64,000 nt of DNA from Deltaproteobacteria bacterium (GTDB lineage: Bacteria; Desulfobacterota; Desulfobacteria; Desulfobacterales; QNYZ01): the NCBI GenBank assembly GCA_003973265.1, contig QNYZ01000094.1, positions 1,804 to 65,803 of the forward strand. The letters run 5' to 3'. This document shows, piece by piece, positions 7,877-44,614 of the stretch. Within the stretch, counting starts at the first letter, position 1. Each line of letters opens with the position of its first letter. Below the pieces are notes generated by a model. It made no database searches. It was given only the letters and a program-made list of their open reading frames with translations, and had not been told where the DNA came from. Position numbers and translations under genes: made by a program.

Positions 7877-7889
7877 AGGAACGATGCCG

Positions 7890-17271: not shown

Positions 17272-17324
17272 TGCTACTTCTGGTCTAAATCCCGGATTCA
17301 GGAATTTGCGGTAACGGTTGTATT

Positions 17325-17945: not shown

Positions 17946-18265
17946 GTTGAAAGTCCCCCCTGATTAGGATTTAACGGCTTTTTTAAGAAAACGAAAAACA
18001 TAGCCGAGATGAAAGATTATTATTCTGTAAAAGAGAGATTGAGAAAATCATAAGATACTAAAAAATAATGAATCCAACCTGGTTTGTCAAATAATCTAAC
18101 TTTTTAAAGCACTGAAGTTTCGAAATCATAACCAGAAAACATTTAAAAGACCCGCTCAAAATTTGAATTATTTTCTGCGGCGCTACCAACATCCCCCTGT
18201 GAAGGCCCCGGCTTCCCGGGTTGCTGTAATTGACAATTAACCAGATTTCTGATTTTAAATATACC

Positions 18266-19627: not shown

Positions 19628-19643
19628 TCCGGACACGTTTGAG

Positions 19644-23038: not shown

Positions 23039-23784
23039 GGGGCGCTCCGCCGGCGTCGAAAGTTGGGCTGGAAAAGGATCCGCTGAAAAATAAGCCGGGA
23101 AAAGACGACCGTGTTGCGCATAAAATCGACAAAGGGCCGGAAATGAGACACGCGGGCGACTCCGGGCTGATAATGGACCGACACCGGCGCTTCCAGCACG
23201 GGGATCCCGCGCCATCGGGCTTTAACCAGGCTTTCCACTTCGTATTGAAAGCGTCGGGCACGGATATCCAGGTCAAGGGCTTCGGGCAGCGGGTACAGCC
23301 GGAAGCCGCTCTGGGTATCTGATACGCCCGGGCCGCCGGCGAGGCGGACCCAGAAATTGGAAAATTTGCGGCCGTATCGACCGGTCCAGGGGATTTTTCT
23401 GCTGTTCATTCCCAATCGTTTCCCAACGACAATCGGGCGGCTGCCGGGGGGGATGGCACGAACCAGGGAATGGTAATCAGACGGGTGGTGCTGGCCGTCG
23501 GCATCCACGGTAACGGCCCATGCGGATTTCTTTACGGCCACCCGGAACCCGGTTGTCAGCGCCGCGCCCTTACCCCAGTTCTTCACGTGGCGGATAAAGG
23601 TAATATCGATCAGCCTTCTGTCTTTTCTTGGATCAACACGGGCCATTTCGTCGGTGGAACCGTCATCGACCACGATCACGGGAAAGCCCGTTTTTCTGGC
23701 CTTGTCAATGACATCCCAGACCGTGGTATAATGGTTGTAGACCGGGATAACGAAACTGAACCGGTTCGGCAGGGGCAGCGTCAT
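23035..23784 (-). CDS. Family 2 glycosyltransferase (ApeJ-like)
   Basis: 249-aa ORF. FSFVIPVYNH...VIVVDDGSTDE is the GT-A/GT2 signature, with a DADGQH (DxD-type) motif. ATGA overlaps at both ends. Confidence 0.85.
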   Translation of the reverse strand: MTLPLPNRFSFVIPVYNHYTTVWDVIDKARKTGFPVIVVDDGSTDEMARVDPRKDRRLIDITFIRHVKNWGKGAALTTGFRVAVKKSAWAVTVDADGQHHPSDYHSLVRAIPPGSRPIVVGKRLGMNSRKIPWTGRYGRKFSNFWVRLAGGPGVSDTQSGFRLYPLPEALDLDIRARRFQYEVESLVKARWRGIPVLEAPVSVHYQPGVARVSHFRPFVDFMRNTVVFSRLIFQRILFQPNFRRRRSAP

Positions 23785-25541: not shown

Positions 25542-26008
25542 ACGGTACCGTCCAGGGCATGACGAATGTATTCAGGAATTTCCAGCAGCAGCTCTTTTTC
25601 CGGCATTTGTACGGCCACCTGTTCCCCCCTGGCCGTGGCGCACAAAATGTTATCCGCAATCCGTCTGATTTCAAAATCAATAACGATTTTAATGTGGGCT
25701 TCAATCAGCGATGCCGTGCAGGTAAACTCGTCGCCATATGAGAGTGAGGCGATGTGCTTGCAGTTTGTTCGCGTGATGGGAAGCAAAAGACCGGTTTTTT
25801 TGTACAGACCATACAATTCGATACCAGACTGATGAAAGAGTTCAAAGCGTGCCAGATCAAAGTATTTATAATAGTTCCCATGCCAGACCACCTGCATGGG
25901 GTCCAGATCGTGAAAGGGTACCTGCAGGGTAATCCGACAGGTTTGAATCGGTTGTTTTTTTGCCATGATGCATGATCCCATATTCATTTCCTGTCCGGAT
26001 GGATTCAT
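25538..26008 (-). CDS. 4HBT/YbgC-type hotdog acyl thioesterase
   Basis: 156-aa ORF. ITLQVPFHDLDPMQVVWHGNYYKYFDLAR matches the 4HBT-class catalytic Asp context. It is the first gene of the ATGA-linked operon. Confidence 0.75.
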   Translation of the reverse strand: MNPSGQEMNMGSCIMAKKQPIQTCRITLQVPFHDLDPMQVVWHGNYYKYFDLARFELFHQSGIELYGLYKKTGLLLPITRTNCKHIASLSYGDEFTCTASLIEAHIKIVIDFEIRRIADNILCATARGEQVAVQMPEKELLLEIPEYIRHALDGTV

Positions 26009-29304: not shown

Positions 29305-29916
29305 CTATTGTTGATCCCGATACCCTGCTATCAGCTCGCGTACGTTTTTTTTATGCGCATAATAGATGATCCCGGCGGTTAAAAGGGTGCCCGCCACCGC
29401 CATGCCATCTGTCCCGCACCGGGCCAGGGTCCCGATGGCCAGCACCATGACCATCATGAAAGATCCGATAAACGGCTGCCGCGTGGCACCGTAGGCCGTC
29501 AACCACAAAATCATGCCGATGCCGCAAGACAGAGGAGAGAGCGCCAAGACAAACCCCAGGTAGTTGGCCACGCCTTTCCCCCCCCGGAACCGGTGAAAGC
29601 AGGGGAGGCGGTTGCCGATAATCAGGCCCAGTCCGATCCAGGGTACCTGGTAAAGCGGCAGAATGCTCAGCGCGACGAAGGCCAGGCTGACGGCTTTTCC
29701 CATTTCCAGGATCAGTACCCCTACCGCCCACCCCAAACCGGCCTGACGGTAGACGTTGGTTGCGCCGGGGTTGCCGCTGAACCGGGCACGGGGATCCTCT
29801 CTGCCCAGGATCCGAAACAGGCCGATGGATACATTGATGGATCCGGCGATGTAGGCCGCGGTGAATAACAGTATAAAACGCATGGGCTTCGGCTCCGGTT
29901 TCAGGCGATAATCCAA
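29305..29916 (-). CDS. plsY: Glycerol-3-phosphate acyltransferase PlsY (acyl-phosphate dependent)
   Basis: 203-aa ORF; the likely start is the Met at 29883. Motifs AYIAGSIN and FSGNPGATNVYR are PlsY signatures, with a multi-pass membrane profile. It is the last gene of the long minus-strand lipid operon. Confidence 0.88.
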   Translation of the reverse strand: MDYRLKPEPKPMRFILLFTAAYIAGSINVSIGLFRILGREDPRARFSGNPGATNVYRQAGLGWAVGVLILEMGKAVSLAFVALSILPLYQVPWIGLGLIIGNRLPCFHRFRGGKGVANYLGFVLALSPLSCGIGMILWLTAYGATRQPFIGSFMMVMVLAIGTLARCGTDGMAVAGTLLTAGIIYYAHKKNVRELIAGYRDQQ

Positions 29917-30773
29917 TCAGGCGGACCGGTGGAGACTCCGCTGATCGGACGCATTTCGACCCCGCTGATTGCTTCAACGATTTCTCCGGAAAGAGATTCA
30001 ATCCGGATATCAAAAGACAACCGGCCGCCGGACGTCTCAAGCGGTTGGACACGGGCAGCGTATTGTTCGTCCGGGGCCGTCGGCTTGAAGATGGTTCGCT
30101 TACGAATCGCAACGGGATAGGCCACGATCCGGGCATACCGCTGGCCCCAGGCACAGGCCACGTGGAAGGCCGCATCAAGCGGGAAGGGCGATCCCAGGAT
30201 GCCGGGAGCCGGGCGCGTGGTTGCCGGGGTGCCGGCCATGCCGGTGGCATGGGTGGGGAACAGGCAGATATGGCCGGTCAGGCTCTGGAATCCCGGCCCG
30301 AAAGGGACCAGTTCACGGTAAAGCCGATCGGCGCTGACTGAAAAGCCCTCCTGGGCCGCATATAATCGCATATCCCCCGGCGGAACCGGCTGCGCCCTGG
30401 AAAGGGCGTTCGGACGCGTGCCGGGTGCGGCGAATACCGCCGATATATGTTCTTTCATCCGGGTGATGGTACCCGATCTGGAGGTAAACCGGGTAGACAG
30501 CGTCCCCCTGGTATCGCCTGTATCGGCCACAGCCTGGATGGTTATCCTGAGATCGACATCGGTGTCGTCCGCCCCGACGGGCAATAATCGCGAAAAGGCA
30601 ATATCCCGCATACGGGTAACATCCGTCTGCGGGCGATGTTTGAGCACCGTGTCAGACAGAATCCGGAGTGCTTCCACCGCAGGCAGCACCGCCTGGTATC
30701 CCAGGCGGTGGTCCCGGATATACGCAGGGATGGTATAGTTAACTGAATCGGTTATCGGGGAAAATTTTTCCAT
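29901..30773 (-). CDS. Stand-alone PKS-type double-hotdog dehydratase (PS-DH-like)
   Basis: 290-aa ORF. N-terminal HRLGYQAVLP (His...Pro of the HxxxGxxxxP box, with the Gly shifted by one position) and C-terminal LDAAFH (DxxxH/Q box). The size fits a double hotdog. Confidence 0.6.
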   Translation of the reverse strand: MEKFSPITDSVNYTIPAYIRDHRLGYQAVLPAVEALRILSDTVLKHRPQTDVTRMRDIAFSRLLPVGADDTDVDLRITIQAVADTGDTRGTLSTRFTSRSGTITRMKEHISAVFAAPGTRPNALSRAQPVPPGDMRLYAAQEGFSVSADRLYRELVPFGPGFQSLTGHICLFPTHATGMAGTPATTRPAPGILGSPFPLDAAFHVACAWGQRYARIVAYPVAIRKRTIFKPTAPDEQYAARVQPLETSGGRLSFDIRIESLSGEIVEAISGVEMRPISGVSTGPPDWIIA

Positions 30774-31231
30774 AATCGGATGGTTTTTTTATCGATGCCC
30801 ACCGGGGTTCCGGTGGTGTTGGTGGCGCAATGCCGGGTGAACCCGTTGCAGATAACCTCCCCGGTTTCCCGATGGGTGATCACATATTCAAATCGCAGGC
30901 GCACCCGTTCCATTTCTGCCGGGCGGGTATGCACAAAAATGGGATCATCATAGTAAAGCGGCGTAAAATAGTTGACGCCCATGGCGATGATCGGATAGAT
31001 AAACCCGCTTTTTTCCACTTCGCGGTACGGGTAACCGGTATCGCGCATGAGAGACGCCCGCCCCAGCTCAAAGTATCGCAGGTAGTTGGCGTGATAGACC
31101 ACCTGGGAACGGTCGGTATCGGCGTAGAGGATGCGATGGGTGCAGCGGTGCCAGAAACGACCGTCGGTCAGGTCCTTGATATAATGCGTATCGGTTTGAT
31201 CTGTTTCCGGTTGAAACGGTTTGGGTTTCAC
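30752..31231 (-). CDS. 4HBT/YbgC-type hotdog thioesterase (ApeK-like)
   Basis: 159-aa ORF. ILYADTDRSQVVYHANYLRYFELGR is the classic YbgC/4HBT active-site context. Confidence 0.8.
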   Translation of the reverse strand: MKPKPFQPETDQTDTHYIKDLTDGRFWHRCTHRILYADTDRSQVVYHANYLRYFELGRASLMRDTGYPYREVEKSGFIYPIIAMGVNYFTPLYYDDPIFVHTRPAEMERVRLRFEYVITHRETGEVICNGFTRHCATNTTGTPVGIDKKTIRLWKNFPR

Positions 31232-31232
31232 G

Positions 31233-32498
31233 TCACATTCCTTTCAAGACCAGGCAGCAGTTGGTACCGCCGAATCCGAATGCATTGGAAAGAACAAATT
31301 CGTGGGCATACCGCCGGGCCGTATGGGGCACCACGTCCACGTCGTCCAGTTCCGGATCGGGAAGATGGTTAATTGTGGGCAGAATCAGGCCGTTTCGCAT
31401 CCCCTCCACGGACAGGGCCGCTTCGATGGCGGCCGACGCCCCCAGAGAATGGCCGAGCTGGGACTTGTTGGAAGACACCGGCAATTTTTCCAGCCGCCGT
31501 CCGAAGATGTCCCGCAGACATTCAACTTCCGTTAAATCACCTTTCCGGGTAGAGGTGCCATGGGCATTAACATAACCGATATCATCCGGCGTTATCCCGG
31601 CATCATCGATGGCTTGCGCAATGGCCCGGATGATCGTTTTTTTATTGGGCAGGGTGAAATGGTAGGCATCGGATGTCCATCCCACGCCGGCTACCTCGGC
31701 CAGCGGCGTCAATCCCCAGGTCTTTACCATCTCTTCGGCCGCCAAAGTCAGGACGCCGCACCCTTCGGACAATACGATCCCCCTGCGATCAATGGAAAAC
31801 GGCCGGCAGGCCTGCCGGGGATCATCCCAGGCCCGGTCTTTGGGGCCGATACTGATGGTGGCCAGCATATTGGCAAATCCCTGGACAATTTCCGGTACCA
31901 GGCAGGTATCCACGCCGCCGGTCAGGGCAAAGTCGCAATCGCCATCCCGGATCATGCGGGCGCCCATGGCAATGGCATGGTTACCCGAGGCGCAGGCCCC
32001 CTGGGGCGAGATGACCGGGCCGGTAAATCCCAGGGCCATCCCGGCTTTTCCGGCCGGCACATTGGCGCAGAGATTGGGCAGCAGGTAGGGGCTGACCTTG
32101 AAAGGTCCCTTGTTGACATAATTGTCCATGGCCACCCGGAAGGCATCGGTGCCGTTCAGGGCCGATCCGATCAGGCAGGCCGTGCGGGGGCCGGTCTCCG
32201 GGGTGATCTCAAGCCCGGAATCTGCCAGGGCCTGCTGGCAGATCGCCATGGTCAGGATGACGAAATCCGCGTTCCAGTTGTAGGCCTCCTTGCGGTCGAC
32301 AAAATCGTAGTCCAGGGGATCCCAGTCCGGAATTTCGCCGACCACGTTGCTGCGGGTCTGGACCTCGCAGCGACTGATTTTTCTAAAACCTGATTCGCCC
32401 CTGACTGCCCGGTCCCAGGTTTTCCGGAAGGTATTTCCCAAAGCCGTGGCCGCGCCGTAACCGACCACGAATACGCGCCTGTTTAATGGTGGTTTCAT
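31233..32498 (-). CDS. Beta-ketoacyl-ACP synthase (FabF/FabB-type KS)
   Basis: 421-aa ORF with the Cys-His-His triad contexts GACASGNHA, NAHGTSTRKGD and LGHSLGASAAIE. Confidence 0.9.
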   Translation of the reverse strand: MKPPLNRRVFVVGYGAATALGNTFRKTWDRAVRGESGFRKISRCEVQTRSNVVGEIPDWDPLDYDFVDRKEAYNWNADFVILTMAICQQALADSGLEITPETGPRTACLIGSALNGTDAFRVAMDNYVNKGPFKVSPYLLPNLCANVPAGKAGMALGFTGPVISPQGACASGNHAIAMGARMIRDGDCDFALTGGVDTCLVPEIVQGFANMLATISIGPKDRAWDDPRQACRPFSIDRRGIVLSEGCGVLTLAAEEMVKTWGLTPLAEVAGVGWTSDAYHFTLPNKKTIIRAIAQAIDDAGITPDDIGYVNAHGTSTRKGDLTEVECLRDIFGRRLEKLPVSSNKSQLGHSLGASAAIEAALSVEGMRNGLILPTINHLPDPELDDVDVVPHTARRYAHEFVLSNAFGFGGTNCCLVLKGM

Positions 32499-32577: not shown

Positions 32578-33831
32578 CTATGCGTTTATTTTCTGAAAGA
32601 CGGCGCAGGAATTACAGCCGCCGAAGCCAAAAGCATTTTTTAACACAAATTCCTGCTCAAGTCGACGGGGACCTTCGGAAACGCAATCGATGGGAAGCGC
32701 GGGGTCTTCGGTGTAGTTGATGGTGGGAATCAGCGTCCGGTTGATCATTCCCATGATGGTAAACACCGATTCAATGGCACTTGATGCGCCCATGGCATGG
32801 CCGATCAGCGATTTATTGGCCGTCACCGGCGGGATCCGGCCAGGGAAATTTTCGGCCAGGGCATCGTATTCCACCCGGTCGCCGACGCGGGTGGAGGCGG
32901 CATGCGCGTTAACGGCGTCGATCTGCCGGGCCTCGATCCGGGCATCGGCGAGGCTTTCCTTGATGCAGCGGCTCACCGTGGCCAGATTGGGCGCCACAAA
33001 ATGATGGGCATCCGAGGTCATGGCATATCCGGCCAGGGCGATTTTCGGATCCAGGCCGTGGGCCCGGGAAAATTCGTGGGAGCAGAGAACGATGGCGGCC
33101 GCACCTTCGGAAATCACGAACCCCCTCCGGTCAACGGAAAAGGGCCGGCTGGCCCGATGGGGTGGCTCGGCTTTCAGGCCGGGTTTGGGATTAAAGGCGC
33201 CGTTCATGGTGAAAAACCCGGCCACGATCGGCTCGACCAGGGCGAAATCAACGGCGCCGCAGATCACGACATCGGCCATCCCCTGCCTGATCAGCATGGC
33301 GCCCGTAATGATCGAGGTCAATCCCGTGGCACAGGCCGTAATGGTCGAGAGAATCGGCCCGGTGGCGCCGGTCAGTATCGAGACCTTGCCGCCCACCATG
33401 TTGATGCATGAATTGGGATTGGTAAACGGATGGGGCAGTTTATGCTCGGCGATCATCCTTCGGTCGGCTGCAAGCACCGCGTCCTGACCGCCCACAGCCG
33501 AGCTGAACGTAATGGCCACCCGGGGTGCCAGGGTTGAATCAATTTCGATGCCACTGTGATTCAAGGCCCGATGCACCGTCAACAGGGCATGTGGGAAAAC
33601 CGGCGATGTCCAGTGGGCCATGGCCCGGGGGGAAAGAAAGGGGTAGGGAGCCGGGTCGAAATCCGGTACCTGTCCGGCGATACGGACGGGAAAATCATCG
33701 GCCAGCGGAAAACGGGTCAGGGGGCCGATCCCGCTTTTCCCTTCAAGCGCCCGCTCCCATTGCGCCGACAATTCGGTTCCCAAAGGGGATACGGTATCGA
33801 ACCCGGCGATAACGGCGGTTTTTGAATTCAT
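32578..33831 (-). CDS. Beta-ketoacyl-ACP synthase (second KS, divergent)
   Basis: 417-aa ORF. TACATGLTS (Cys present), NAHAASTRVGD (HAAST instead of HGTST) and IGHAMGASSAIE. Confidence 0.85.
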   Translation of the reverse strand: MNSKTAVIAGFDTVSPLGTELSAQWERALEGKSGIGPLTRFPLADDFPVRIAGQVPDFDPAPYPFLSPRAMAHWTSPVFPHALLTVHRALNHSGIEIDSTLAPRVAITFSSAVGGQDAVLAADRRMIAEHKLPHPFTNPNSCINMVGGKVSILTGATGPILSTITACATGLTSIITGAMLIRQGMADVVICGAVDFALVEPIVAGFFTMNGAFNPKPGLKAEPPHRASRPFSVDRRGFVISEGAAAIVLCSHEFSRAHGLDPKIALAGYAMTSDAHHFVAPNLATVSRCIKESLADARIEARQIDAVNAHAASTRVGDRVEYDALAENFPGRIPPVTANKSLIGHAMGASSAIESVFTIMGMINRTLIPTINYTEDPALPIDCVSEGPRRLEQEFVLKNAFGFGGCNSCAVFQKINA

Positions 33832-33876: not shown

Positions 33877-34875
33877 TTACCAGGGAATGAAGCGATACAG
33901 CTTGGCGAACATCTCGTAGACTTCAATCCAGTTCTGAAAATCCTCAGCCGACCGCATGTGGGCACGTTTGTTGACCATGACCCAGCTCATGTGGGCGGCG
34001 CCGTCTTTGCAGGTGCGGCAGTCCCGGGTTTCCGACGTGCAGCAGCGGTGAGTAGTGGTTAGATCCGAGGCCCAGCGGACAAAGTGAATCAGGCGTTTGG
34101 GCTGCGGATCACGGTTATCGAACGATTCGGTCACCGACGGGCATTCGTTCCAGCCAAATGGGCGGCCGAGCATTTTACCCGTGGTAATGATTTTATGGTA
34201 GTACTTGGAAGAAATGACCGTATCCGGGTAGCGGTCGAGCATATCATCCATTTCCGCCCGGATGTCGATCAGTTCTTCAGGCTGCCAGGAAAAGCCGTCC
34301 ACATCTTCATCATTGGATAAAAGCTGCATGTGAACCTTGACGCCGATATCGCGGATTTTACGAACGATTCCTTCGGTTTTGCCGATCTGCCGGGGGGTAA
34401 TGGTATAGAGGTAATAGGTATACGCATCACCGGCATAATTTTTACTGGAAATGGCAAAGGTATCCCTGCCGCGAAGCTGAATCTCATCTTCTTCGGTTCC
34501 CCACAGGGAAATACCGACCATCAGGTCGGGAAAGCGGTCCCGTGGTACCTTGATCAGGCCGTTGGTGGCGCAAAAGGTGGGGATACGCTGATAAAACGCA
34601 TCGACCCGGTCCAGGCTGAGGCTCGGTTCGCCGCCGATGAGGATGGCCAGGTTGACGCCGCGGGCTTTTTCCTTATCGATAAAGGCTTCCCATCTGGTCA
34701 GGTCTCTTTCCTCGTCGGCGACTTTGTCCTCATCGGAAGAAAAAAAGAAGCACCCCTTGCAGCGCAGGTTGCAACGGTTATTCACATCGTAAATGGAACT
34801 GCGGATATTGAGTTTCGAAATCCGTTTATATCGGTTGTACCAGTCTTCGTTTAATAGGGAACTAATTGTTTTCAT
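33877..34875 (-). CDS. Radical SAM enzyme with a C-terminal Cys-rich (auxiliary-cluster-like) motif
   Basis: 332-aa ORF. CNLRCKGC is the CxxxCxxC motif. C-terminal CCTSETRDCRTC. Paralogous to the next gene. Confidence 0.8.
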   Translation of the reverse strand: MKTISSLLNEDWYNRYKRISKLNIRSSIYDVNNRCNLRCKGCFFFSSDEDKVADEERDLTRWEAFIDKEKARGVNLAILIGGEPSLSLDRVDAFYQRIPTFCATNGLIKVPRDRFPDLMVGISLWGTEEDEIQLRGRDTFAISSKNYAGDAYTYYLYTITPRQIGKTEGIVRKIRDIGVKVHMQLLSNDEDVDGFSWQPEELIDIRAEMDDMLDRYPDTVISSKYYHKIITTGKMLGRPFGWNECPSVTESFDNRDPQPKRLIHFVRWASDLTTTHRCCTSETRDCRTCKDGAAHMSWVMVNKRAHMRSAEDFQNWIEVYEMFAKLYRFIPW

Positions 34876-34923
34876 TTAAAATACTCCAAATAATCAACCT
34901 GTTACGGGTAAGATCCGGGCCTG

Positions 34924-36051
34924 TCAGGCCGGGTTGCGGCCCGGCGGCGGCACAAGATGATGGCAAAGGTTGGTGCCCTTGGAATAATCCGCTACCCAGA
35001 CGGCCAGGTAGGTATCGACATAATCGAGCCAGGCTTTAAAGGTGGCCGAACTGGCGGCATGGCGAAAGAGCCGCGCGGTGACCACGGCGCTTCCGGCAGC
35101 ATAATGCCGGCAATCATCACAATCCGTATCCGGTACGCAGCAGGCGGCCTGGCGGTCCCAGGTCAGATCGGACCGATACTGGCGGAAAGACCGGCCCAGC
35201 CCGATGGTTTTGGAGGGATTCCGGCGGGGATACGAGCAGCCGTACAGGCTATGCAGACCCAGTGTGTGGGTATGGGCAACGGTATTGTACGGCGAGTAAA
35301 TGATATGCCGGGGATAGTCGTTTATCAGGGCCGACATGGTGCTTCGCATATGGGCCAGTGAATCCGGAGTATGCCGCAGATGTCCCTGATAGCCGACTGG
35401 CGCGGAAAAAACGTTAAAGGTCACCTTGAAGTTGTTTTTTACCAGTGTCCGGATTACCTCGCGGCTTTCATCGATATTTTCACGGGTGAATGTGTAGACG
35501 ATTATCGCGCGGGGGTCATCCCGGTAATTCTCCATCTGTTTTTTCAAAAGATCCGCGGCATGTCGAACCCGGCGGCTGGTCTGATCGTTTCCCCATACGG
35601 AAATATGAATTTTGTAACCGACGGATGTGGGAATCGGCTGAACGCCGTTGGTGGCGATGGCGCCCAGCGGAATGACATCTGAACAGACCTGGCAGAGTTC
35701 GGGAACCAGGGAGGGTTCCGCCCCGGCCAGGACCGCGTAGGTAATCCCTCTCTCTTTTTCAGCGGTCATATGCCGGCGCCAGGCATCCGGGTCGGAATTA
35801 TTTTCGGCGTATTGTTTCTCGCCTTCATAAAAATAGCAGCCGTCGCAGCGGATATTGCAACGGCTGGTCATGTCGTAGGTCGATTCTCTCAGGAAAAAAT
35901 ATCGGCGCACCTTTTCCCACCGCTCCCGCACGGCAGGGTCCGATAAAATATCGGAAAATCGGGTGGTTCCGGTTGAAGCGGATGAATCCGGCTTTGACAC
36001 CGGTTTCGACTCGGGGCTCTTTTCCGCCTGGTTGAGGACAAGGGTTTTCAC
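34924..36051 (-). CDS. Radical SAM enzyme with a C-terminal Cys-rich motif (paralog of 33877-34875)
   Basis: 375-aa ORF. CNIRCDGC is the CxxxCxxC motif. C-terminal CCVPDTDCDDC. Confidence 0.8.
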   Translation of the reverse strand: MKTLVLNQAEKSPESKPVSKPDSSASTGTTRFSDILSDPAVRERWEKVRRYFFLRESTYDMTSRCNIRCDGCYFYEGEKQYAENNSDPDAWRRHMTAEKERGITYAVLAGAEPSLVPELCQVCSDVIPLGAIATNGVQPIPTSVGYKIHISVWGNDQTSRRVRHAADLLKKQMENYRDDPRAIIVYTFTRENIDESREVIRTLVKNNFKVTFNVFSAPVGYQGHLRHTPDSLAHMRSTMSALINDYPRHIIYSPYNTVAHTHTLGLHSLYGCSYPRRNPSKTIGLGRSFRQYRSDLTWDRQAACCVPDTDCDDCRHYAAGSAVVTARLFRHAASSATFKAWLDYVDTYLAVWVADYSKGTNLCHHLVPPPGRNPA

Positions 36052-36357: not shown

Positions 36358-36780
36358 TTATATATCTTCGGGCGGCTGCCGCTCCACTGTGAGCCGTCCT
36401 GAACAGGCGAGCTCTCCGCCGGATTCAACCCGAAAGGTGCAGGTTAACGGTGTCCGGTTGCCCGGGCAGATAACGACTTCAAGGGGATCGCCGGGCCGGA
36501 TGATCCGCTTGAAGCGGACCCGGCTGACCTGTTTTAATTGAAACCGTTCGTCTTCCGCCTGGCAGATTGCATCTAACACCATGCTTAATTGCGCAATTCC
36601 GGGCAGGATCGGGTTATCAGGAAAATGTCCGGAAAACCAGAAAGAATCGGATTCTACCGAAACCCTCGCATTAATTTCACCCAGGTTATTCTGCCGCAAA
36701 TCCAGAAACCGATACCATTTTCCCCGGTTAAATAAAAGGGGCGGATGCGAATTTTTGGTCATTTTCTCAGATACTCCCAT
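36358..36780 (-). CDS. FabZ/FabA-like hotdog 3-hydroxyacyl-ACP dehydratase (ApeI-like)
   Basis: 140-aa ORF with FSGHFPDNPILPGIAQLS, the FabZ-type catalytic His context. An alternative start at 36762 gives an ATGA overlap with the upstream radical SAM gene stop. Confidence 0.8.
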   Translation of the reverse strand: MGVSEKMTKNSHPPLLFNRGKWYRFLDLRQNNLGEINARVSVESDSFWFSGHFPDNPILPGIAQLSMVLDAICQAEDERFQLKQVSRVRFKRIIRPGDPLEVVICPGNRTPLTCTFRVESGGELACSGRLTVERQPPEDI

Positions 36781-38117
36781 AGTGGCCCGCTGAATCCCTG
36801 CTGGTACAGTTTTGGCAGAGCGGTTGCCGACAGATCTTCGCCATTGGTGAAGATCCAGTTCCGGTGATGTTCAGCATGTGAATGAATGTGGCGAATGATC
36901 CGATCCGGGGAAATCCCCGGCGGGCGATAGAAAACGGGATCAAGCAGGCTCTGCCCCGGAGAAATCTGTCCCTGTCGGCATGCCAGGTCGTACAGGGGCG
37001 TGTGGGGATAAATCCGCATGCCGCAGAAGATGAAGATGACCGTCTGTTTAAATGCGTCGAGCGCTGTTAACGTCTCTTCAAGACTGTCGATGGTTTCGCC
37101 CGGGCCACCAAGCAGAATATAATGAGCGACGTATAACCCGGCGGCCACGGCCCGTTGGTGGGCAATCTGCACATCTTCTGCCTTAAATGGTTTTCCATAC
37201 GCTTTCAATACCCGGTTGCAGAGCGATTCGGTTCCGAATTCAACATGGGTCAGTCCGGCCTCGGCCAGCAGCCTGAAATATCCCCTGGGGGGGACGATGG
37301 GCGCAAAGAACCCGCCCCAGGGGACATGGATTCCCGAACGGATAAACGCCCGTGCCACTTCGGCGCTGTGTGTCATGTCTGCGTTGAAAGCCGAGTCGGT
37401 GATAAAAAGGTATCTGGCCCCGGCCTCGACGAGGCGGGCGGCCGTGCCGGCGACTTCGGCCGGGGGGATCAACCGCATCCGGCGCCCTTCAATATAGGGA
37501 TAGGTGCAATAGACGCATCGAAAGGGACAGCCCCGCTTGGTCTGCAGGTTCAACATGCCGCCGTGTTCCAGGTAGTACCGGTGATGACCATCGGCTGCAG
37601 TGACCGTCCGCTGGATATTGCCGCTCAAGGGCGGGGGCATCCGGCCTGGTGTGCCGGGGAGAATGACTCCCGGAATCTGACCAGGGATCCGGGCCGGGGC
37701 CGTGCCGGCTTCGATGGCGTCTAACAGCTGCAGCAGCCGTTCCCCTTCACCGATAATGCCGAAATCAGCCTTGAGTTCGGTGAGAATTTCATCGGGAAAG
37801 AGGGTAAATCCACTTCCTCCCAAAACAAGCGGCACATCGGTCAATTGCCGGATATGATGACACAGGTTGCGGTGGTCATTGATGAATGTTTGTGGATTTT
37901 CAATATCCGTATTGTCCACATTGCGCAGAGATACCCCGATCAAGTCCGGTTTGAAAGCACGGATAAGGGTGGATAAATCGTCGTTCGTTGTCAGGTTGAT
38001 GTCGGCAATGCGCACCTCATGCCGATGGGCAATGGCCCCGGCTACATAATCAAGACCCACCGGGTAGACCGGAAAGGGGATGGTCATCGGGTTGGCGGAG
38101 ATGAGCAGGACTTTCAT
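36759..38117 (-). CDS. B12-binding-domain radical SAM enzyme (class B)
   Basis: 452-aa ORF. The N-terminal MKVLLISANP...PVGLDYVAGAI is a Rossmann-like cobalamin-binding domain layout, followed by KRGCPFRCVYCTYP (CxxxCxxC). The start directly abuts the KS-CLF stop (TAG at 38120-38118, ATG at 38117). Confidence 0.8.
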   Translation of the reverse strand: MKVLLISANPMTIPFPVYPVGLDYVAGAIAHRHEVRIADINLTTNDDLSTLIRAFKPDLIGVSLRNVDNTDIENPQTFINDHRNLCHHIRQLTDVPLVLGGSGFTLFPDEILTELKADFGIIGEGERLLQLLDAIEAGTAPARIPGQIPGVILPGTPGRMPPPLSGNIQRTVTAADGHHRYYLEHGGMLNLQTKRGCPFRCVYCTYPYIEGRRMRLIPPAEVAGTAARLVEAGARYLFITDSAFNADMTHSAEVARAFIRSGIHVPWGGFFAPIVPPRGYFRLLAEAGLTHVEFGTESLCNRVLKAYGKPFKAEDVQIAHQRAVAAGLYVAHYILLGGPGETIDSLEETLTALDAFKQTVIFIFCGMRIYPHTPLYDLACRQGQISPGQSLLDPVFYRPPGISPDRIIRHIHSHAEHHRNWIFTNGEDLSATALPKLYQQGFSGPLWEYLRK

Positions 38118-40310
38118 CTATGGGCTCACCAAGATAGCAGAAACAGAGGCTCCCAGTCCGAGAATCAGGATGCCCCGCCCGCCCAGATCAACGGAGCCGG
38201 TCCCGGTCAGGGCGGATGGAACGACCTGATCTTGAACCAGGGTGACGGCCAGGGAGGTGGCCACGGCCGATGCCGTGGCAAATTCCCCGGTAAATGAGCG
38301 GTACGGGATACCGGGTACCTGGCGGTTTATCGCGCTGAAAAATTGCTTAAGTTGCATATTACCTAATGAGTCATAACATTTAGGAATACCATATAATATA
38401 GCGCTGTACTTATCGGAAAGTGAATGCCGGCCATCCAGGGCGGCTGCCAGTCTGGATATGATTTCCGGGTTTTCCCCGTTTTCTTCGGTCCGCGCGTAAA
38501 AAAGAGAGTGAAGGGAGGGCTGCCCGGGCAGTTTTCCATCCTGCAGACAAAATGCCCCGCCCCCGTCCGCCGGCACCCTTGCCAACCGGCAGGATCGATC
38601 AAAAAGCGGTGAATAGTCCGGGTGAAATTCATCGGCACCGATCACGATACACGGCGGGTCACCATCCCGGGCCAGCAGCGACGCGGTGAAGAGTGCCTGC
38701 TCAAATGAATAATCTCCACCGGTCAGGGTCAGATTCGGACCCGTGGCCTTAAAAAAGATCGCGGCCTGTCCGGCCGGGGCATTGTGGACCGAACCGCTGA
38801 AGTCGATGGGGCTGGCAAAGCGCTGGTCAGATTCAAACAACTGGGTCAGAAACCGATGGGTCTCCGTCAATGCGCCCCATCCGGTTCCCAGAAAAACCGA
38901 TTGAGGGCTAGCGGGGGCGGCCTTACGCCGGATCGTTTCGCAAAGCGACAACACCATGCGGGGCATCCGTTTTAACCGGCGAAGCGTTGCGGGCGGCAGA
39001 CCGGCGGAAAGGGCGGCTGAAGAGAGTTGCCCGGCCATGGATTGACCCCGGCGAAAGCATTCTGCGGTCGCATCCGTATTTCCTGCACCGGTCCGGCAGG
39101 CATGGGCCAGGATAGAGAGCGCGCGGGGAAAATGAGCGGTCTTAACAGGGTTTCCACTGCCGATTTGCCCCAGGACGGCGGCGGCGTTGTTTCCGCCAAA
39201 CCCCAGGGAATTGACCAGGGCGCGTCGTACCGGCTGGTGAACCGGCGTTTCAACCGGGCAGAGTGGAAGACGGGTATCCGGCTCAACCAGGCCGGTATTG
39301 GCCGGTACCAGGCCGTGGCGGATGGATAAAGCCGATACGACGGCGCCCACGGCCCCGGCCGCAGCCAGGCTGTGGCCGGTACTTCCCTTAATGGAAGACA
39401 CCGCCGGTATCCGGTGGGAAAACAATCGGTCGATGGCCACAGATTCGGCGGCGTCGTTATCTACCGTGCCGGTGCCGTGAAGGTGGATATAATCGATCGG
39501 GTCCCTGATCCGGCTCATGGATATGCCCGCATCGGTCAGGGCGGCGGACATGGCTGCCAGCGCTCCGTCTCCCCGGGGGTGGGGCGCCGTGGGGTGATAT
39601 GCATCGCAGGAGAGTCCGGCCCCGAGAAGCTCGGCCACGGCATTTTCTGGAACGGTTTGGGATGATTCCAAGAGAAGCATGGCGGCCGCTTCAGCCACCG
39701 CCATGCCATGCCGGTGGCGGTCGAAAGGCCTGGGCCCTGTCGGGTCGATGAGCTGCAGGGCGTTAAAACCATAATACGTCAACCGGCACAGTGCGTCCAC
39801 GCCGCCGGCCAAAACGCGGGTGGCCCTGCCGGAGCGGAGGAGTTCCAGCGCAATTTTAAAGGTTGCCGTCCCAGATGAACAGGCCGTCGAGACGGTCAGT
39901 ACCGGCCCCCGGCAGCCCAGGATGATCGCCAGATGATCGCCCACCGAGCCGGTGGCATGAAAACGATAGGCATCCGGGTCGTCGATTCCGGCCATGAGCC
40001 CTTTCTCCGTATCCGGCATGCCGCCCGTGGTGCTGCCGATAACAATGGCGTCCGGCGGCCGGTTGTGGCCACTGAGCGCTTCTCTGGCGGCGATTAATGC
40101 GAGCTGATGGGTGCGTGGGAGACGGGCATCGCGGCTGATCGGTTCGCCGATCTGTCCCACCGGCAGCGGGGTGCCGTGGAGAACGGGGAAAAGGGAAAGC
40201 GGGCTGATTTTTTTGTCATCGCGGGTGATGGCCGAAAGCGTGGCGGCGCATCCGATACCGAGCGGACTGATGATCCCCATCCCGGTAATATACACTTGCG
40301 GATACTTCAA
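38118..40310 (-). CDS. Fused ketosynthase / chain-length-factor-like protein (KS-CLF)
   Basis: 730-aa ORF with a TTG start overlapping the ACP stop (TTGA at 40307-40310). The N-terminal half is a KS with TACSSGTAT, HLHGTGT and STGHSLAAAG. The C-terminal roughly 300 aa is thiolase-fold-like but has TGGDYSFEQAL where the nucleophile Cys should be. Confidence 0.8.
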   Translation of the reverse strand: MKYPQVYITGMGIISPLGIGCAATLSAITRDDKKISPLSLFPVLHGTPLPVGQIGEPISRDARLPRTHQLALIAAREALSGHNRPPDAIVIGSTTGGMPDTEKGLMAGIDDPDAYRFHATGSVGDHLAIILGCRGPVLTVSTACSSGTATFKIALELLRSGRATRVLAGGVDALCRLTYYGFNALQLIDPTGPRPFDRHRHGMAVAEAAAMLLLESSQTVPENAVAELLGAGLSCDAYHPTAPHPRGDGALAAMSAALTDAGISMSRIRDPIDYIHLHGTGTVDNDAAESVAIDRLFSHRIPAVSSIKGSTGHSLAAAGAVGAVVSALSIRHGLVPANTGLVEPDTRLPLCPVETPVHQPVRRALVNSLGFGGNNAAAVLGQIGSGNPVKTAHFPRALSILAHACRTGAGNTDATAECFRRGQSMAGQLSSAALSAGLPPATLRRLKRMPRMVLSLCETIRRKAAPASPQSVFLGTGWGALTETHRFLTQLFESDQRFASPIDFSGSVHNAPAGQAAIFFKATGPNLTLTGGDYSFEQALFTASLLARDGDPPCIVIGADEFHPDYSPLFDRSCRLARVPADGGGAFCLQDGKLPGQPSLHSLFYARTEENGENPEIISRLAAALDGRHSLSDKYSAILYGIPKCYDSLGNMQLKQFFSAINRQVPGIPYRSFTGEFATASAVATSLAVTLVQDQVVPSALTGTGSVDLGGRGILILGLGASVSAILVSP

Positions 40311-40573
40311 CGCGTCTTTTCCACCCGGTTTTCATTGATAAAACCGGCCAGCGCGCCAAGGGAGGCAAACACTTTTGTGCCCAGTTCCTGATTGTCGATG
40401 AGGACGCCATAATCTTTTTCCACCATCATCACCAGTTCGAGGACATCGATGGAATCAATTCCGAGTTTTCCACCGATCAGCGGCTCGTCAGCGGCGATAT
40501 CATCCGGTGTTACATCCACTAGGTCAAGGGCGTCGATGATTTTGATCTGGAGTTCTTTGATCAGGTTTTCCAT
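40307..40573 (-). CDS. Acyl carrier protein
   Basis: 88-aa ORF with LGIDSIDVLEL. It is the first gene of the minus-strand operon. Confidence 0.88.
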   Translation of the reverse strand: MENLIKELQIKIIDALDLVDVTPDDIAADEPLIGGKLGIDSIDVLELVMMVEKDYGVLIDNQELGTKVFASLGALAGFINENRVEKTR

Positions 40574-41207: not shown

Positions 41208-41945
41208 ATGGAGCAATCCCATGATATTGAGGTCGCCATCGTCACCGGTGCCAGCGGGGGAATCGGCCGGGCCATTGCGATTGCACTGGCCAAAGCGGGC
41301 TATTATGTGGTCGTCAATTATCGATCCAGTCAAGGTGGTGCCGAAAAAACCCTGGCGCAGATTACGCAGGATGGCGGGCGGGGTGAATTGCAGGGATTTG
41401 ACGTCACCGATGCCGACCAGACCAAGGCGGCCCTGGACGATCTGTTCTCGCGGTACAAGGGGATCGATGTGCTGGTGAACAATGCCGGAATCACCCACGA
41501 CGGGCTGTTTATGATGATGTCCAAAAAAGCCTGGCAGCAGGTTCTGGATACAACCCTGGCCGGGTTCTACAATGTGACCAAGCCGGTGCTGAAAAAGATG
41601 GTTCGCCGCAAAAAAGGGTCCGTGGTCTCGATCTCTTCCATTGCCGGGTTGATCGGAAACCGGGGCCAGGCCAATTATTCGGCGGCCAAGGCCGGTTTGA
41701 TCGGTGCCAGCCGCTCGCTGGCTGCCGAAGTGGCCCGGCTGGGCATCCGGGTCAACGTGGTGGCCCCCGGCCTGATCGATACGGAAATGATCAAGGATGT
41801 GCCCCTGAGCGCGCTGAAAAATATGATTCCCATGGCCCGCATCGGAAAACCGGAAGAGGTGGCCAGCGTGGTCCGTTTTCTCTGCTCGGACGATGCCTCG
41901 TATGTGACCGGCCAGGTGGTTTCCGTTAATGGCGGCATGGCCTGA
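41208..41945 (+). CDS. fabG: 3-oxoacyl-ACP reductase (SDR; ApeQ-like)
   Basis: 245-aa ORF. TGASGGIGRAIA, NNAG, YSAAK (YxxxK), and the C-terminal YVTGQVVSVNGG typical of FabG. Confidence 0.9.
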   Translation: MEQSHDIEVAIVTGASGGIGRAIAIALAKAGYYVVVNYRSSQGGAEKTLAQITQDGGRGELQGFDVTDADQTKAALDDLFSRYKGIDVLVNNAGITHDGLFMMMSKKAWQQVLDTTLAGFYNVTKPVLKKMVRRKKGSVVSISSIAGLIGNRGQANYSAAKAGLIGASRSLAAEVARLGIRVNVVAPGLIDTEMIKDVPLSALKNMIPMARIGKPEEVASVVRFLCSDDASYVTGQVVSVNGGMA

Positions 41946-42606
41946 GCCGGTGAGACCGGGGATCATTATCTGGATCAAACGGATACTTCGCAGCCATCGC
42001 TGTCACCGGGTATTTCCGGGGACGATCCTTGCGCTGCTGGTGCTGATCTGTGCCGGGTGGACAAAGAGCTGGACATCGATCCAGGCCGCGGCTGAAAAAA
42101 TTGAATCGATCCAGGCGGATTTTGTCCAGGAAAAGCACCTTCCGTTTCTGGTGAAACCGCTGGAATCCACGGGGCGGTTCTATTTCAAGCGTCCGGGATC
42201 GGTTCGCTGGGAATACGTCTCACCGTTGAAAAGTATCCTGGTGTCCCATCAGGGAAATACCCGGCGGCTGGTGGAAGAAAACGGGGCATGGATTGAAGAT
42301 GTCGGGGTGAAAATGGCGGGGATGCAGGTGGTCATGACCCAGATCAGCCAATGGATGTCCGGCCGGTTTACCGACAGTACGGATTTTGATGCCAGGATCG
42401 CAGACGATGGCAAAGTGGTGCTGACCCCTGGAAATAAAGCCCTCTCCCGGATGATCCGGCGCATTGAGCTGACGCTTTCCGACCGTCCGGGGGTGGTGGA
42501 TTCGGTGAAGGTGATTGAAGGCGACGATGCCTATACCGTATGGGCCTTTAAAAATATCCAGACCAATAAACCCTTCAAACCCACCCTGTTTACCGTGGTG
42601 CCATGA
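41929..42606 (+). CDS. LolA-like outer-membrane lipoprotein-carrier family protein (ApeL-like)
   Basis: 225-aa ORF with an N-terminal TM/signal segment, then QADFVQEKHLPFLVKPLESTGRFYFKRPGSVRWEY, a LolA-family pattern. ATGA overlap with the next gene at 42603-42606. Confidence 0.65.
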   Translation: MAAWPEPVRPGIIIWIKRILRSHRCHRVFPGTILALLVLICAGWTKSWTSIQAAAEKIESIQADFVQEKHLPFLVKPLESTGRFYFKRPGSVRWEYVSPLKSILVSHQGNTRRLVEENGAWIEDVGVKMAGMQVVMTQISQWMSGRFTDSTDFDARIADDGKVVLTPGNKALSRMIRRIELTLSDRPGVVDSVKVIEGDDAYTVWAFKNIQTNKPFKPTLFTVVP

Positions 42607-43283
42607 GCCGGTTTTCCTGGTTGATCATCTGCCTGTTCTGCCTGGGCGGCTGTACCGGCATACCGCGGATGGTCCCGCTGTATCCGCTTGAAACGATATT
42701 AGAAAAACCGGATTGCCGGCAGCCGTTCGCAAAAAATCAGTGGCAGTTTGTCCACACGATACGCATGGAAACGGGCAGGAAGGCTTCGTTTTTCAGCGGC
42801 GTCATCACGGTTGATCCGGCTGCGGAATCGGTACGCTGCACGCTTCTTACCCTGGAAGGCCTGGTCCTGTTTGATGCCCGCCTGACCAGGGGGAAACCGG
42901 AGGTGATAAAGGCGGTCCCGCCCTTTGACCGACCGGCGCTGGCCACCGGTATATTGACTGATGTCGGGCTGATATTTTTATCCCCCGCCGGGCCGCCTGA
43001 AACCGGCCGGACCGGGAGCGGAGATATTGTCTGCCGGTTCGGCGCACCGCAACAGGGCATCGTGGAAGTCGTTCCCGCCCGTGACCGGTCGGACCGATCC
43101 TGGCAGATCCGGAAGTATGACGAAAACGGCCGGGTGGTCCGCGAAGTGGTGACAGGAACGTCGGGTCGCTGGGAAGGGGCAGAGACCCTTTTTATTCCCG
43201 ATACATTTACCTTGACGGCCACGGGAAGCCGTGGCTATCGTCTGCATTTCCGGTGTCTGTCATCCACACGAATCGGCTTATAA
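42603..43283 (+). CDS. Lipoprotein, DUF3261-like (ApeN-like)
   Basis: 226-aa ORF. Signal peptide with lipobox LGGC (MSRFSWLIICLFCLGGCTG). The position after the LolA-like gene matches the aryl polyene cluster order. The family assignment rests on context. Confidence 0.5.
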   Translation: MSRFSWLIICLFCLGGCTGIPRMVPLYPLETILEKPDCRQPFAKNQWQFVHTIRMETGRKASFFSGVITVDPAAESVRCTLLTLEGLVLFDARLTRGKPEVIKAVPPFDRPALATGILTDVGLIFLSPAGPPETGRTGSGDIVCRFGAPQQGIVEVVPARDRSDRSWQIRKYDENGRVVREVVTGTSGRWEGAETLFIPDTFTLTATGSRGYRLHFRCLSSTRIGL

Positions 43284-43351: not shown

Positions 43352-44614
43352 ATGAAATTTTATCTGATATATCCCAAGTGGCCCAAACTGACCGGTCAAA
43401 CCGAGTTTCACCTGCCGCCCCACGGCCCGGTGGTATTTGCGGCGGCCCTGCCCGATGATGTGGATATCGAATTTGTCGATGAAAACCTTCAGGAAATTGA
43501 TTTTGACGTCACTGCCGATCTGGTGGGGATTTCCGTCATGTTGACCAGCCAGATCCAGCGCGGCTGGGAAATTGCCGATACGTTTCGGGCCAGAGGGACA
43601 ACCGTGATTTTTGGCGGGATTGCCGCCATGCTTCATGCCGAAGAGACCATGGCCCATGCCGATGCGGTTTTTGTCGGCGAGGCAGAAGGCCGCATGGAAG
43701 CACTGCTTGATGATTTCAATAATAACCGGCTGAAAAAATTATATAATTATCTTGATGATCAGCCGCCCGTGGAACTCATCGGACCGGCCCGCCGGGATAT
43801 TTTAAACCGGGACCTGTATAATTACCGGGGCATTCAGATGGTCGACCTGATGCATGCATCAAGGGGATGCCGGTTTAATTGCTACCCGTGTGCGGTGGCC
43901 TACCTGGGCGGGCGTAAATTTCGGCCGCGCCCCATCGACATCGTGATTGAAGAAATGGCCGGTATTGACAATAACCGGTTATTTATCGTGGACAATTCCC
44001 TGGCGCAGAGTACGAAATGGGAAAAAGAGCTGTTTCGGGCCATGATCCCGTTGAAAAAAAACTGGTGCAGCCATCCCATTGAAGATGATCCCGAAGTCCT
44101 TGACCTGGCGGCCCGGGCCGGGGCCTGGTATGTCTACCAGGCGGTGTTTGACACCTCGGATTTAATCCGGGACCGGATTAAACGCTATCACGATCATGGT
44201 ATTGCCGTGGAAGGTACGATCCTGCTGGGGCTTGACGAACATACCGAAGAGAGCATCAATCGCCTGATTGATTTCCTCCTGGAGGTCGATCTGGATCTGG
44301 CCGAATTTACGATTTTAACGCCCTTTCCCCATACGCGGGCCTTTCGGGATCTTGAAAAGCAGGGCCGGATTTTAACCCATGACTGGAAAAAGTATACGGC
44401 GGATCAGGTGGTGTATCAACCGAGACATATCTCGCCGGACCGGCTCCAGGAGCTGTTTCATCATGCCTGGGATTCTTTTTATAAAGATGAATCTCAGCAC
44501 ATGAAAATGTTCAAGCTCTTTAAGCGGGTCATGGAACGGGAGATGGCCAGCAATACCTATCGGCCGAGACAGCGAAACAAGGCGGACCGGGTTTTTGGCC
44601 GGAAAAAAGCCTGA
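43352..44614 (+). CDS. B12-binding-domain radical SAM enzyme (class B, second copy)
   Basis: 420-aa ORF. N-terminal cobalamin-binding-like domain (MKFYLIYPKW...GISVMLTSQ), then ASRGCRFNCYPC (CxxxCxxC). Confidence 0.78.
   Translation: MKFYLIYPKWPKLTGQTEFHLPPHGPVVFAAALPDDVDIEFVDENLQEIDFDVTADLVGISVMLTSQIQRGWEIADTFRARGTTVIFGGIAAMLHAEETMAHADAVFVGEAEGRMEALLDDFNNNRLKKLYNYLDDQPPVELIGPARRDILNRDLYNYRGIQMVDLMHASRGCRFNCYPCAVAYLGGRKFRPRPIDIVIEEMAGIDNNRLFIVDNSLAQSTKWEKELFRAMIPLKKNWCSHPIEDDPEVLDLAARAGAWYVYQAVFDTSDLIRDRIKRYHDHGIAVEGTILLGLDEHTEESINRLIDFLLEVDLDLAEFTILTPFPHTRAFRDLEKQGRILTHDWKKYTADQVVYQPRHISPDRLQELFHHAWDSFYKDESQHMKMFKLFKRVMEREMASNTYRPRQRNKADRVFGRKKA

Follow-up and report, generated by a model that had tools for sequence, protein, structure and literature searches.

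A predicted aryl-polyene-like gene cluster of anaerobic bacteria carries a tandem pair of twitch-like radical SAM paralogues that may act on carrier-bound acyl chains

Hardly anything is known about the radical S-adenosylmethionine (SAM) chemistry of fatty-acyl (non-isoprenoid) lipids. A 2026 review gives ladderanes and the Jaw5 product as the only acyl lipids proposed to be modified by radical SAM enzymes; the substrates of Jaw5 and LipA are carrier-protein-bound chains (PMC13459092). In Kuenenia, the adjacent radical SAM genes Kuste3342 and Kuste3343 lie near those coding for an acyl carrier protein (ACP) and FabG, and are not expressible in E. coli (PMC4790861). The fatty acid synthase (FAS) clusters of Kuenenia and Desulfotalea are syntenic, including the radical SAM genes Kuste3342/3343 and DP1853/DP1855, and an anaerobic pathway to polyunsaturated fatty acids or hydrocarbons has been proposed for them (Rattray et al., PMC2649909). 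Genome mining has also found ‘ladderane’ clusters, with products that are unknown, in Desulfobacterota and in further phyla outside the anammox group (PMC9902471). Here we analysed a 64,000-nucleotide (nt) stretch of DNA from a member of the Desulfobacterales (assembly GCA_003973265.1, contig QNYZ01000094.1, positions 1,804 to 65,803), hereafter the window, in which two radical SAM genes, rSAM_B and rSAM_A, lie in tandem between an ACP gene and two ketosynthase (KS) genes. No characterisation of this radical SAM family was found in the literature searched.

Both open reading frames (ORFs) were found on the minus strand exactly where the initial annotation of the DNA had placed them, and the gene order it had given was confirmed. 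The carrier-protein gene ACP2 lies 9 nt upstream of rSAM_B, 48 nt separate rSAM_B from rSAM_A, and two KS genes follow rSAM_A after a further 45 nt. Pairwise comparison by BLASTP gave 27% identity over 311 residues (E 3e-33). This similarity is far above chance, and the two proteins are thus true paralogues, as had been claimed from their shared motifs. The first ∼30 residues of rSAM_B (35960-36051) vary among orthologues, with block identities of 0.05 and 0.32, and are modelled with low confidence; the GTG taken as its start may lie upstream of the true one, or the tail may be variable in itself.

The position of the pair had suggested action on ACP-tethered chains, and the surroundings of the wider family lend support to this idea. 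A carrier-protein gene adjoins family members in five gene contexts. A single family member occurs in a KS-ACP-rSAM cassette (locus L088) and another in an ACP-rSAM cassette (L089), and an rSAM-ACP arrangement lies within a sulfotransferase/glycosyltransferase cluster (L083). The 391-residue neighbour of P0299 in the last locus was checked as a further member and does not belong to the family. Two distant members are themselves fused to relevant domains, P0253 to a TubC docking domain and a thioesterase and P0304 to an AMP-binding (adenylation) domain; the context L086/L087 contains an MBOAT gene and no visible ACP. This recurrent carrier-protein linkage is our main evidence that the family acts on carrier-bound substrates. 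For the pair in the window, the gene context leads us to lean, on balance, towards two radical steps, or the action of a heterodimer, of rSAM_B and rSAM_A on an ACP-bound unsaturated acyl chain.

A substrate of another kind, such as a sugar nucleotide or head group, would leave the ACP as a mere companion in the pathway, as with the substrates of BlsE, DesII or viperin. Over its full length, the fold of rSAM_B is matched best by BlsE, a sugar-nucleotide decarboxylase, with DesII and viperin-like enzymes also ranking high; distant members occur in glycosyltransferase, sulfotransferase or MBOAT clusters, and a GT2 glycosyltransferase gene lies nearby in the window. We nevertheless consider a non-lipid substrate very unlikely. 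The five contexts with an adjacent ACP include the minimal ACP-rSAM and KS-ACP-rSAM cassettes, family members carry thioesterase or adenylation fusions, ACP2 is nearly as conserved as rSAM_A, and the core operon holds no sugar-nucleotide genes.

The two genes were found to travel together. A genome scan, made with one genome per species and a narrower family alignment as query, recovered relatives in at least 537 species; the locus analyses cover the 80 closest loci, in which rSAM_A orthologues are 77-83% identical to the window protein and which come from Desulfobacterales, Desulfobulbales, Syntrophaceae, Hydrosulfovibrio and Spirochaetota/Leptospirales. Gene order and identities were obtained by tblastn of the window cluster proteins against these loci. 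The order of the main operon is nearly fixed (ACP1, fused KS and chain-length-factor-like protein [KS-CLF], B12-binding radical SAM enzyme, FabZ-like dehydratase, ACP2, rSAM_B, rSAM_A, KS, KS, thioesterase, polyketide synthase [PKS]-type dehydratase [PS-DH] and sometimes PlsY), as is that of a divergent operon (hotdog dehydratase, FabG, LolA-like protein, a 226-residue protein and a second B12-binding radical SAM enzyme). At each of the 78 testable loci, rSAM_B lies beside rSAM_A; the remaining two of the 80 have rSAM_A near the start of the locus. rSAM_A is the most conserved protein of the cluster and ACP2, present in 74 of the 80 loci, the second most conserved (Table 1). The B-then-A pair is kept in the distant metagenomic cluster L081/L082, which reads KS, KS, B-like (44% identical to rSAM_B), A-like (34% identical to rSAM_A), ACP, KS, MaoC and FabH; the duplication is therefore old and the pairing has been maintained. 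Judged from gene order, the pairing of rSAM_B with rSAM_A is obligatory. Cultured hosts include Desulfosarcina variabilis and D. widdelii (loci L013 and L015). The Spirochaetota/Leptospirales copies (L016, L028, L060, L067 and L080) are, gene by gene, as similar to the window as the Desulfosarcina copies are, which points to transfer of the whole cluster between phyla.

The cysteine motifs of both proteins were verified by translation. The CxxxCxxC motif that the initial annotation had noticed is present as CNLRCKGC in rSAM_A and CNIRCDGC in rSAM_B and is invariant in orthologues, taken here from the 80 closest loci. Eight Cys residues of each protein are 100% conserved: C35, C39, C42, C245, C278, C279, C286 and C289 in 80 rSAM_A orthologues, and C65, C69, C72, C272, C304, C305, C311 and C314 in 76 rSAM_B orthologues. 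Loss of the C-terminal Cys in orthologues had been named beforehand as a finding that would speak against the proposal; these residues were conserved in 76-80 species. One of them, C245 in rSAM_A and C272 in rSAM_B, is a fifth conserved Cys; it precedes the CC pair by about 33 residues and is also visible in other clades of the family. Across 26 diverse members (25-83% identity), no substitution occurs at the three SAM-cluster Cys or at the four C-terminal Cys. In a set of 57 full-length family representatives, C278, C286 and C289 are invariant, and about 11 have G, A, S, V or P as the second residue of the CC pair. The shared CC-x5/6-C-x2-C motif described earlier thus stands for the two proteins and their orthologues but not, in its second Cys, for the family as a whole. 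The invariant family-wide core is Cys...C-x6-8-C-x2-C, and the family signature can be written Cys-x∼33-C(C)-x5-7-C-x2-C-[R/K]. Its four invariant Cys, the upstream one and three of the C-terminal cluster, are as many as one [4Fe-4S] cluster requires. Within the A and B clades, conservation of the second Cys of the pair is 100%, and elsewhere in the family this residue is dispensable; one may speculate that it serves as a hydrogen-atom donor or an extra ligand. In all 26 diverse members, the residue that precedes the third Cys of the N-terminal motif is Gly (CxxxCxGC); SkfB, AbmM and viperin-like enzymes have Phe there.

Strict co-conservation and a fixed gene order could also reflect an obligate heterodimer with one catalytic paralogue, the other being a structural, regulatory or electron-relay partner, and the unequal conservation of the two proteins (80% for rSAM_A versus 67% for rSAM_B) would fit such a division of labour. 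In every orthologue, however, both paralogues retain the full set of Cys in the two motifs as well as the GGE/GAE SAM motif, which argues that both bind SAM and Fe-S clusters. A single catalytic partner is therefore quite unlikely in our estimate.

No Pfam or NCBIfam model covers the family of rSAM_A and rSAM_B. The Pfam model PF04055 (Radical_SAM) scored 27.6 and 28.3 bits, under its cut-off of 29.5 bits (E ∼1e-6), and NCBIfam gave only weak N-terminal matches far under every cut-off. The isolated C-terminal parts, searched against Pfam at E up to 10, matched nothing, including SPASM (PF13186) and DUF3463 (PF11946). SPASM proteins are defined by CX9-15GX4C...CX2CX5CX3C...C and two auxiliary clusters; the paralogues have four to five conserved C-terminal Cys in place of the seven-Cys motif, and PF13186 is silent at E up to 10, so that membership was rejected. 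HpnH-like proteins were likewise rejected, with no match to PF11946 or, at E up to 0.01, to the HpnH model in NCBIfam. For tetraether synthase (Tes/GDGT-MAS), NF045702 gave 23.8 and 22.0 bits against a cut-off of 450, mostly over the N-terminal SAM-motif region, and the Tes architecture of ∼490-530 residues with multiple clusters differs from the 332 and 375 residues of the pair. Membership of the two paralogues in TIGR04072 also failed: they have no B12 domain and gave no match (cut-off 360 bits). Model searches thus turned down all three families put forward in the initial annotation (SPASM, HpnH/DUF3463 and tetraether synthase).

Single-sequence searches of Protein Data Bank (PDB) sequences with rSAM_A and rSAM_B gave marginal matches. 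A family profile placed SkfB first (E 6.7e-17), over the radical SAM core only, and gave further core-only matches to AbmM, viperin-like enzymes, GDGT-MAS (7tol, E 1e-5), SuiB, PqqE, BlsE, MoaA and anSME. About 2,000 relatives of each paralogue are present in databases, and searching 1.84 billion cluster representatives returned 458 at E up to 1e-3; rSAM_A orthologues fall into a single full-length 50% cluster, and the remaining members are 25-38% identical. From profiles and models together, we conclude that rSAM_A and rSAM_B form a distinct, uncurated branch of twitch/SPASM-type radical SAM enzymes outside the SPASM, HpnH and Tes families.

The high rank of SkfB, and of CteB and SuiB as the best fold matches of rSAM_A, raised the question of a role in maturation of ribosomally synthesized and post-translationally modified peptides (RiPPs). 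These matches are confined to the radical SAM core; the pair has no SPASM domain, its sole N-terminal extra is the variable ∼30-residue tail of rSAM_B, and the conserved context is wholly of FAS and PKS type. A precursor gene would not fit into the intergenic gaps, which measure 9, 48 and 45 nt. Gene context and domain content led us to reject the RiPP-maturase reading, which we regard as extremely improbable. The SPASM RiPP maturases CteB, SuiB, anSME and PqqE are top fold matches over the core barrel; the pair differs from them in having neither the seven-Cys motif nor a peptide-recognition domain nor a precursor gene.

Structure prediction with AlphaFold2 (AF2) gave an rSAM_B model with a predicted local distance difference test score (pLDDT) of 90.6 and a predicted template modelling score (pTM) of 0.88. 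Its best full-length match is the twitch enzyme BlsE (7vob; template modelling [TM] scores 0.52/0.58 over 339 columns), followed by SuiB, SkfB, CteB, viperin-like enzymes, DesII and anSME. The rSAM_A model (pLDDT 76.6, pTM 0.81) matched CteB and SuiB best, and also AbmM and MoaA. Matches of the models to CteB, SuiB, BlsE, SkfB, anSME, MoaA and BioB support a partial TIM-barrel core. In the rSAM_A model, a β-hairpin (residues 267-279) ends at the CC pair and a helix (292-301) follows the CxxC; this order of hairpin, Cys and helix would be the layout of a twitch module, in a region predicted with low confidence. An auxiliary Fe-S cluster had been suggested from the Cys motif, by analogy with enzymes that form C-C or C-S bonds, and the conservation and spacing of the Cys, together with the predicted hairpin-Cys-helix layout, are consistent with one such cluster. 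The pair resembles the twitch enzymes (BlsE, SkfB, AbmM, SpeY, BtrN and MoaA) in its radical SAM core, which is closest to theirs, and in the predicted layout of a short C-terminal Cys module, with one Cys before a β-hairpin, more Cys after it and then a helix. It differs from them in its own motif Cys-x∼33-C(C)-x5-7-C-x2-C, in the Gly in place of the usual aromatic residue before the third SAM-cluster Cys, and in lying among carrier-protein and ketosynthase genes, whereas those enzymes belong to aminoglycoside, nucleoside and peptide pathways.

Taken together with the gene context, these features suggest the following scheme. rSAM_B and rSAM_A would both be catalytically competent, each with a SAM-cleaving [4Fe-4S] cluster at CxxxCxGC, and the C-terminal twitch-like module would most likely bind one auxiliary [4Fe-4S] cluster through the upstream Cys and C-x6-8-C-x2-C. 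The substrate would be an acyl or polyenoyl chain on the adjacent ACP2, supplied by the aryl-polyene-like type II system (KS-CLF, FabG and three dehydratases, no enoyl reductase). Each enzyme may form a 5'-deoxyadenosyl radical that takes a hydrogen from the chain, with an electron passing to the auxiliary cluster for a net two-electron oxidation, and the outcome may be ring closure or cross-linking by C-C bond formation, or desaturation. The paralogues could modify two positions one after the other, or could work as a heterodimer. The modified unit might then be extended by the two downstream FabF-like ketosynthases, released by the thioesterase and probably loaded onto glycerol-3-phosphate via a fatty-acid kinase and PlsY, with export by LolA-like and MMPL proteins. 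More specifically, a radical C-C cyclisation or other skeletal rearrangement of an ACP-bound polyene, giving sulfate reducers and spirochaetes cyclised lipids of the membrane or outer membrane that belong to no described class, can be envisaged and is quite doubtful.

Desaturation could be the whole function of the pair: as O2-independent acyl-ACP desaturases, the enzymes would abstract hydrogen and pass an electron to the auxiliary cluster to form C=C bonds, feeding an anaerobic pathway to polyunsaturated fatty acids or hydrocarbons. The twitch/SPASM dehydrogenases anSME, DesII and SpeY are among the fold matches, the hosts are strictly anaerobic, and Desulfotalea psychrophila, which has a similar radical SAM cluster, contains polyunsaturated hydrocarbons (Rattray et al., PMC2649909). 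With three dehydratases and without an enoyl reductase, however, the cluster already yields double bonds independently of radical chemistry, and a separate Pfa-type polyunsaturated fatty acid synthase in the window could explain polyunsaturated products. A pair dedicated to desaturation thus appears rather unlikely.

Several observations weigh against the proposed action on ACP-bound acyl chains and the scheme built on it. Part of the family is encoded in glycan, sulfotransferase or MBOAT clusters, and the class of substrate may accordingly differ between members. In the rSAM_A model, pLDDT is below 50 in the Cys-rich regions (residues 35-51 and 246-288), TM-scores to solved twitch and SPASM enzymes are only 0.4-0.58, and the C-terminal module matches no Pfam model and no PDB sequence. 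As to the later steps, PlsY is found in only 21 of the 80 loci, and a DUF4388 gene and a UvrD helicase gene stand between the accessory set (with the fatty-acid kinase and MMPL) and the radical SAM cluster.

The features of the locus are listed in Table 1. The Cys-His-His triad is kept in all three ketosynthase domains of the cluster. The ApeI/FabZ-like dehydratase has as its best PDB sequences 3esi and 6qsr, the latter of which we take to be the aryl-polyene dehydratase ApeI. In 39 loci, the gene for the 226-residue protein is in synteny, flanked by the LolA-like gene and the second B12-binding radical SAM gene. Promoter and terminator scans gave nothing decisive apart from a promoter-like site (40697-40669) upstream of ACP1.

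Table 1. Genes and motifs of the radical SAM cluster in the window, with mean identity across 80 species
Feature	Position	Strand	Basis	Mean identity
rSAM_A, twitch-like radical SAM paralogue, 332 aa	33877..34875	minus	ORF, translation, homology	79.7%
rSAM_A CNLRCKGC	34750-34773	minus	verified by translation	
rSAM_A upstream Cys245	34141-34143	minus	conserved in both paralogues	
rSAM_A C-terminal Cys cluster CCTSETRDCRTC	34009-34044	minus	verified by translation	
rSAM_B, twitch-like radical SAM paralogue, 375 aa	34924..36051	minus	ORF, translation, homology	66.8%
rSAM_B CNIRCDGC	35836-35859	minus	verified by translation	
rSAM_B upstream Cys272	35236-35238	minus	conserved in both paralogues	
rSAM_B CCVPDTDCDDC	35110-35142	minus	verified by translation	
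ACP2, carrier protein, 87 aa	36061..36324	minus	PF00550 match	72.5%
ApeI/FabZ-like hotdog dehydratase	36358..36780	minus	weak ApeI-like Pfam match; best PDB sequences	42%
B12-binding radical SAM, TIGR04072 (rSAM_ladder_B12) member, motif CPFRCVYC	36759..38117	minus	386.4 bits vs 360 cut-off	52.5%
Fused ketosynthase + CLF-like protein (Ketoacyl-synt_2), 730 aa	38118..40310	minus	Pfam/NCBIfam	
ACP1, PRK09184-type, first gene of minus-strand operon	40307..40573	minus	family match	
KS_c, FabF-like ketosynthase, intact Cys-His-His triad	32578..33831	minus	Pfam/NCBIfam, residue check	
KS_d, FabF-like ketosynthase, intact Cys-His-His triad	31233..32498	minus	Pfam/NCBIfam, residue check	70.9%
YbgC/4HBT-type thioesterase	30752..31231	minus	Pfam/NCBIfam	
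PKS-type double-hotdog dehydratase (PS-DH)	29901..30773	minus	Pfam	35%
PlsY-like acyl-phosphate:glycerol-3-phosphate acyltransferase	29305..29916	minus	family match	
Hotdog dehydratase, first gene of divergent operon; ApeP-like in orthologous locus L085	40728..41159	plus	family match	
FabG/FlxB-like ketoreductase	41208..41945	plus	flexirubin FlxB model resemblance	
LolA-like lipid carrier (LolA2_flexi-like)	41929..42606	plus	flexirubin LolA2 model resemblance	
Conserved 226 aa protein	42603..43283	plus	no Pfam/NCBIfam match	
Second B12-binding radical SAM-like protein, motif CRFNCYPC	43352..44614	plus	family match	
Probable accessory set: LPLAT acyltransferase, MMPL exporter, GT2 glycosyltransferase, FakA(Dak2)-DegV fatty-acid kinase fusion, 4HBT thioesterase	19644..26008	minus	domain matches	

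Among the closest described counterparts are the aryl polyene and flexirubin-type clusters. Shared with them are a KS and CLF-like pair (fused here), a PRK09184-type ACP, ApeI- and ApeP-like dehydratases, a FlxB-like ketoreductase, LolA2-like, LPLAT, GT2 and MMPL proteins, a 4HBT thioesterase and the lack of an enoyl reductase. The locus differs in that no aryl-starter CoA ligase is seen and that four radical SAM genes, two extra FabF-like ketosynthases and PlsY are added. The scan of the cluster genes turned up no enoyl reductase, and the expected chain is therefore unsaturated. By gene content, the cluster can be described as a type II system of aryl-polyene-like kind that lacks this reductase. 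The accessory genes look like an aryl-polyene-type accessory and export set, and we infer that they belong to the same pathway. In the orthologous locus L085, MMPL is closely downstream of PlsY, with one GT25-like gene between them. The thioesterase, the fatty-acid kinase and PlsY would provide a route from free acid through acyl-phosphate to glycerol-3-phosphate.

The comparison with anammox clusters gave a mixed picture. Like kuste3603-3608, with its B12-binding radical SAM gene, and kuste3340-3350, with the tandem Kuste3342/3343, the cluster has FAS-II-like genes, extra ACPs, several FabF paralogues, a FabZ-like dehydratase and radical SAM genes. The B12-binding neighbour of the pair passes the TIGR04072 ‘rSAM_ladder_B12’ cut-off. 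The cluster has four radical SAM enzymes in total (rSAM_A, rSAM_B and the two B12-binding proteins), the same count as in the Kuenenia FAS clusters (Rattray et al., PMC2649909). It differs in that the tandem pair has no B12 domain, that no phytoene-desaturase-like gene is present, that both FabF-like ketosynthases keep their triads, unlike amxFabFmut (bioRxiv 10.64898/2026.05.19.726425), and that its hosts are not known as ladderane makers. When the ACP, FabZ-like and KS proteins were compared with PDB sequences, the FabZ-like protein proved ApeI-like and the KS ordinary FabF-like, and a close link to anammox cluster I, the B12 enzyme aside, was rejected. By these comparisons, the B12 enzyme is the sole element established here as shared with the anammox clusters. 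No protein named as anammox was found among the relatives of rSAM_A and rSAM_B, in cluster-member look-ups or in a profile search with distant members (40 matches); the members of 20 distant representatives come only from Blastocatellia, Pyrinomonadaceae, Ponticaulis, Sphingomonadaceae, Alphaproteobacteria and Deltaproteobacteria. The 80 closest loci do not extend to distant taxa such as Desulfotalea and anammox bacteria. With its TIGR04072 enzyme, the cluster is probably of the genome-mined ‘ladderane’ type.

The lipid-modifying enzymes GrsA/GrsB, Tes (GDGT-MAS), Jaw5/C10P and LipA perform radical chemistry on unactivated lipid carbons, which for the present pair is only a proposal. GrsA and GrsB, in the work of Zeng et al. 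from 2019, are said to be two paralogues that act at two positions of one lipid, and so provide a precedent for such a division of work. The pair lacks the B12 domain of the Grs enzymes, the HemN-like fold of Jaw5 and the motifs of LipA, and belongs to none of these groups by sequence. What is new here is a compact, uncurated family with its own Cys signature and a repeated carrier-protein linkage, present as an obligatory pair within a cluster of at least several hundred anaerobe species. rSAM_A is the best-conserved component of this orphan lipid cluster, and the existence of cultured hosts offers a workable entry to chemistry so far withheld by anammox bacteria. If the pair does catalyse a radical cyclisation, and if anammox bacteria carry orthologues (Kuste3342/3343), it would also be the missing enzyme type for ladderane-like rings built on a carrier protein. 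The product may also be a new lipid biomarker of sulfate-reducing sediments.

Two further features lie elsewhere in the window. A separate Pfa-type system on the minus strand (1388-9641) comprises a PfaA-like synthase of 2162 residues, with KS, acyltransferase, ACP, ketoreductase and PS-DH domains in that order, and, adjacent to it, a PfaD-like enoyl reductase of 583 residues. The region 16000-20000, containing a cytidylate-kinase-like gene and an NhaA antiporter gene, has a GC content of 0.44-0.45 versus 0.53-0.61 elsewhere, and may be a foreign insertion.

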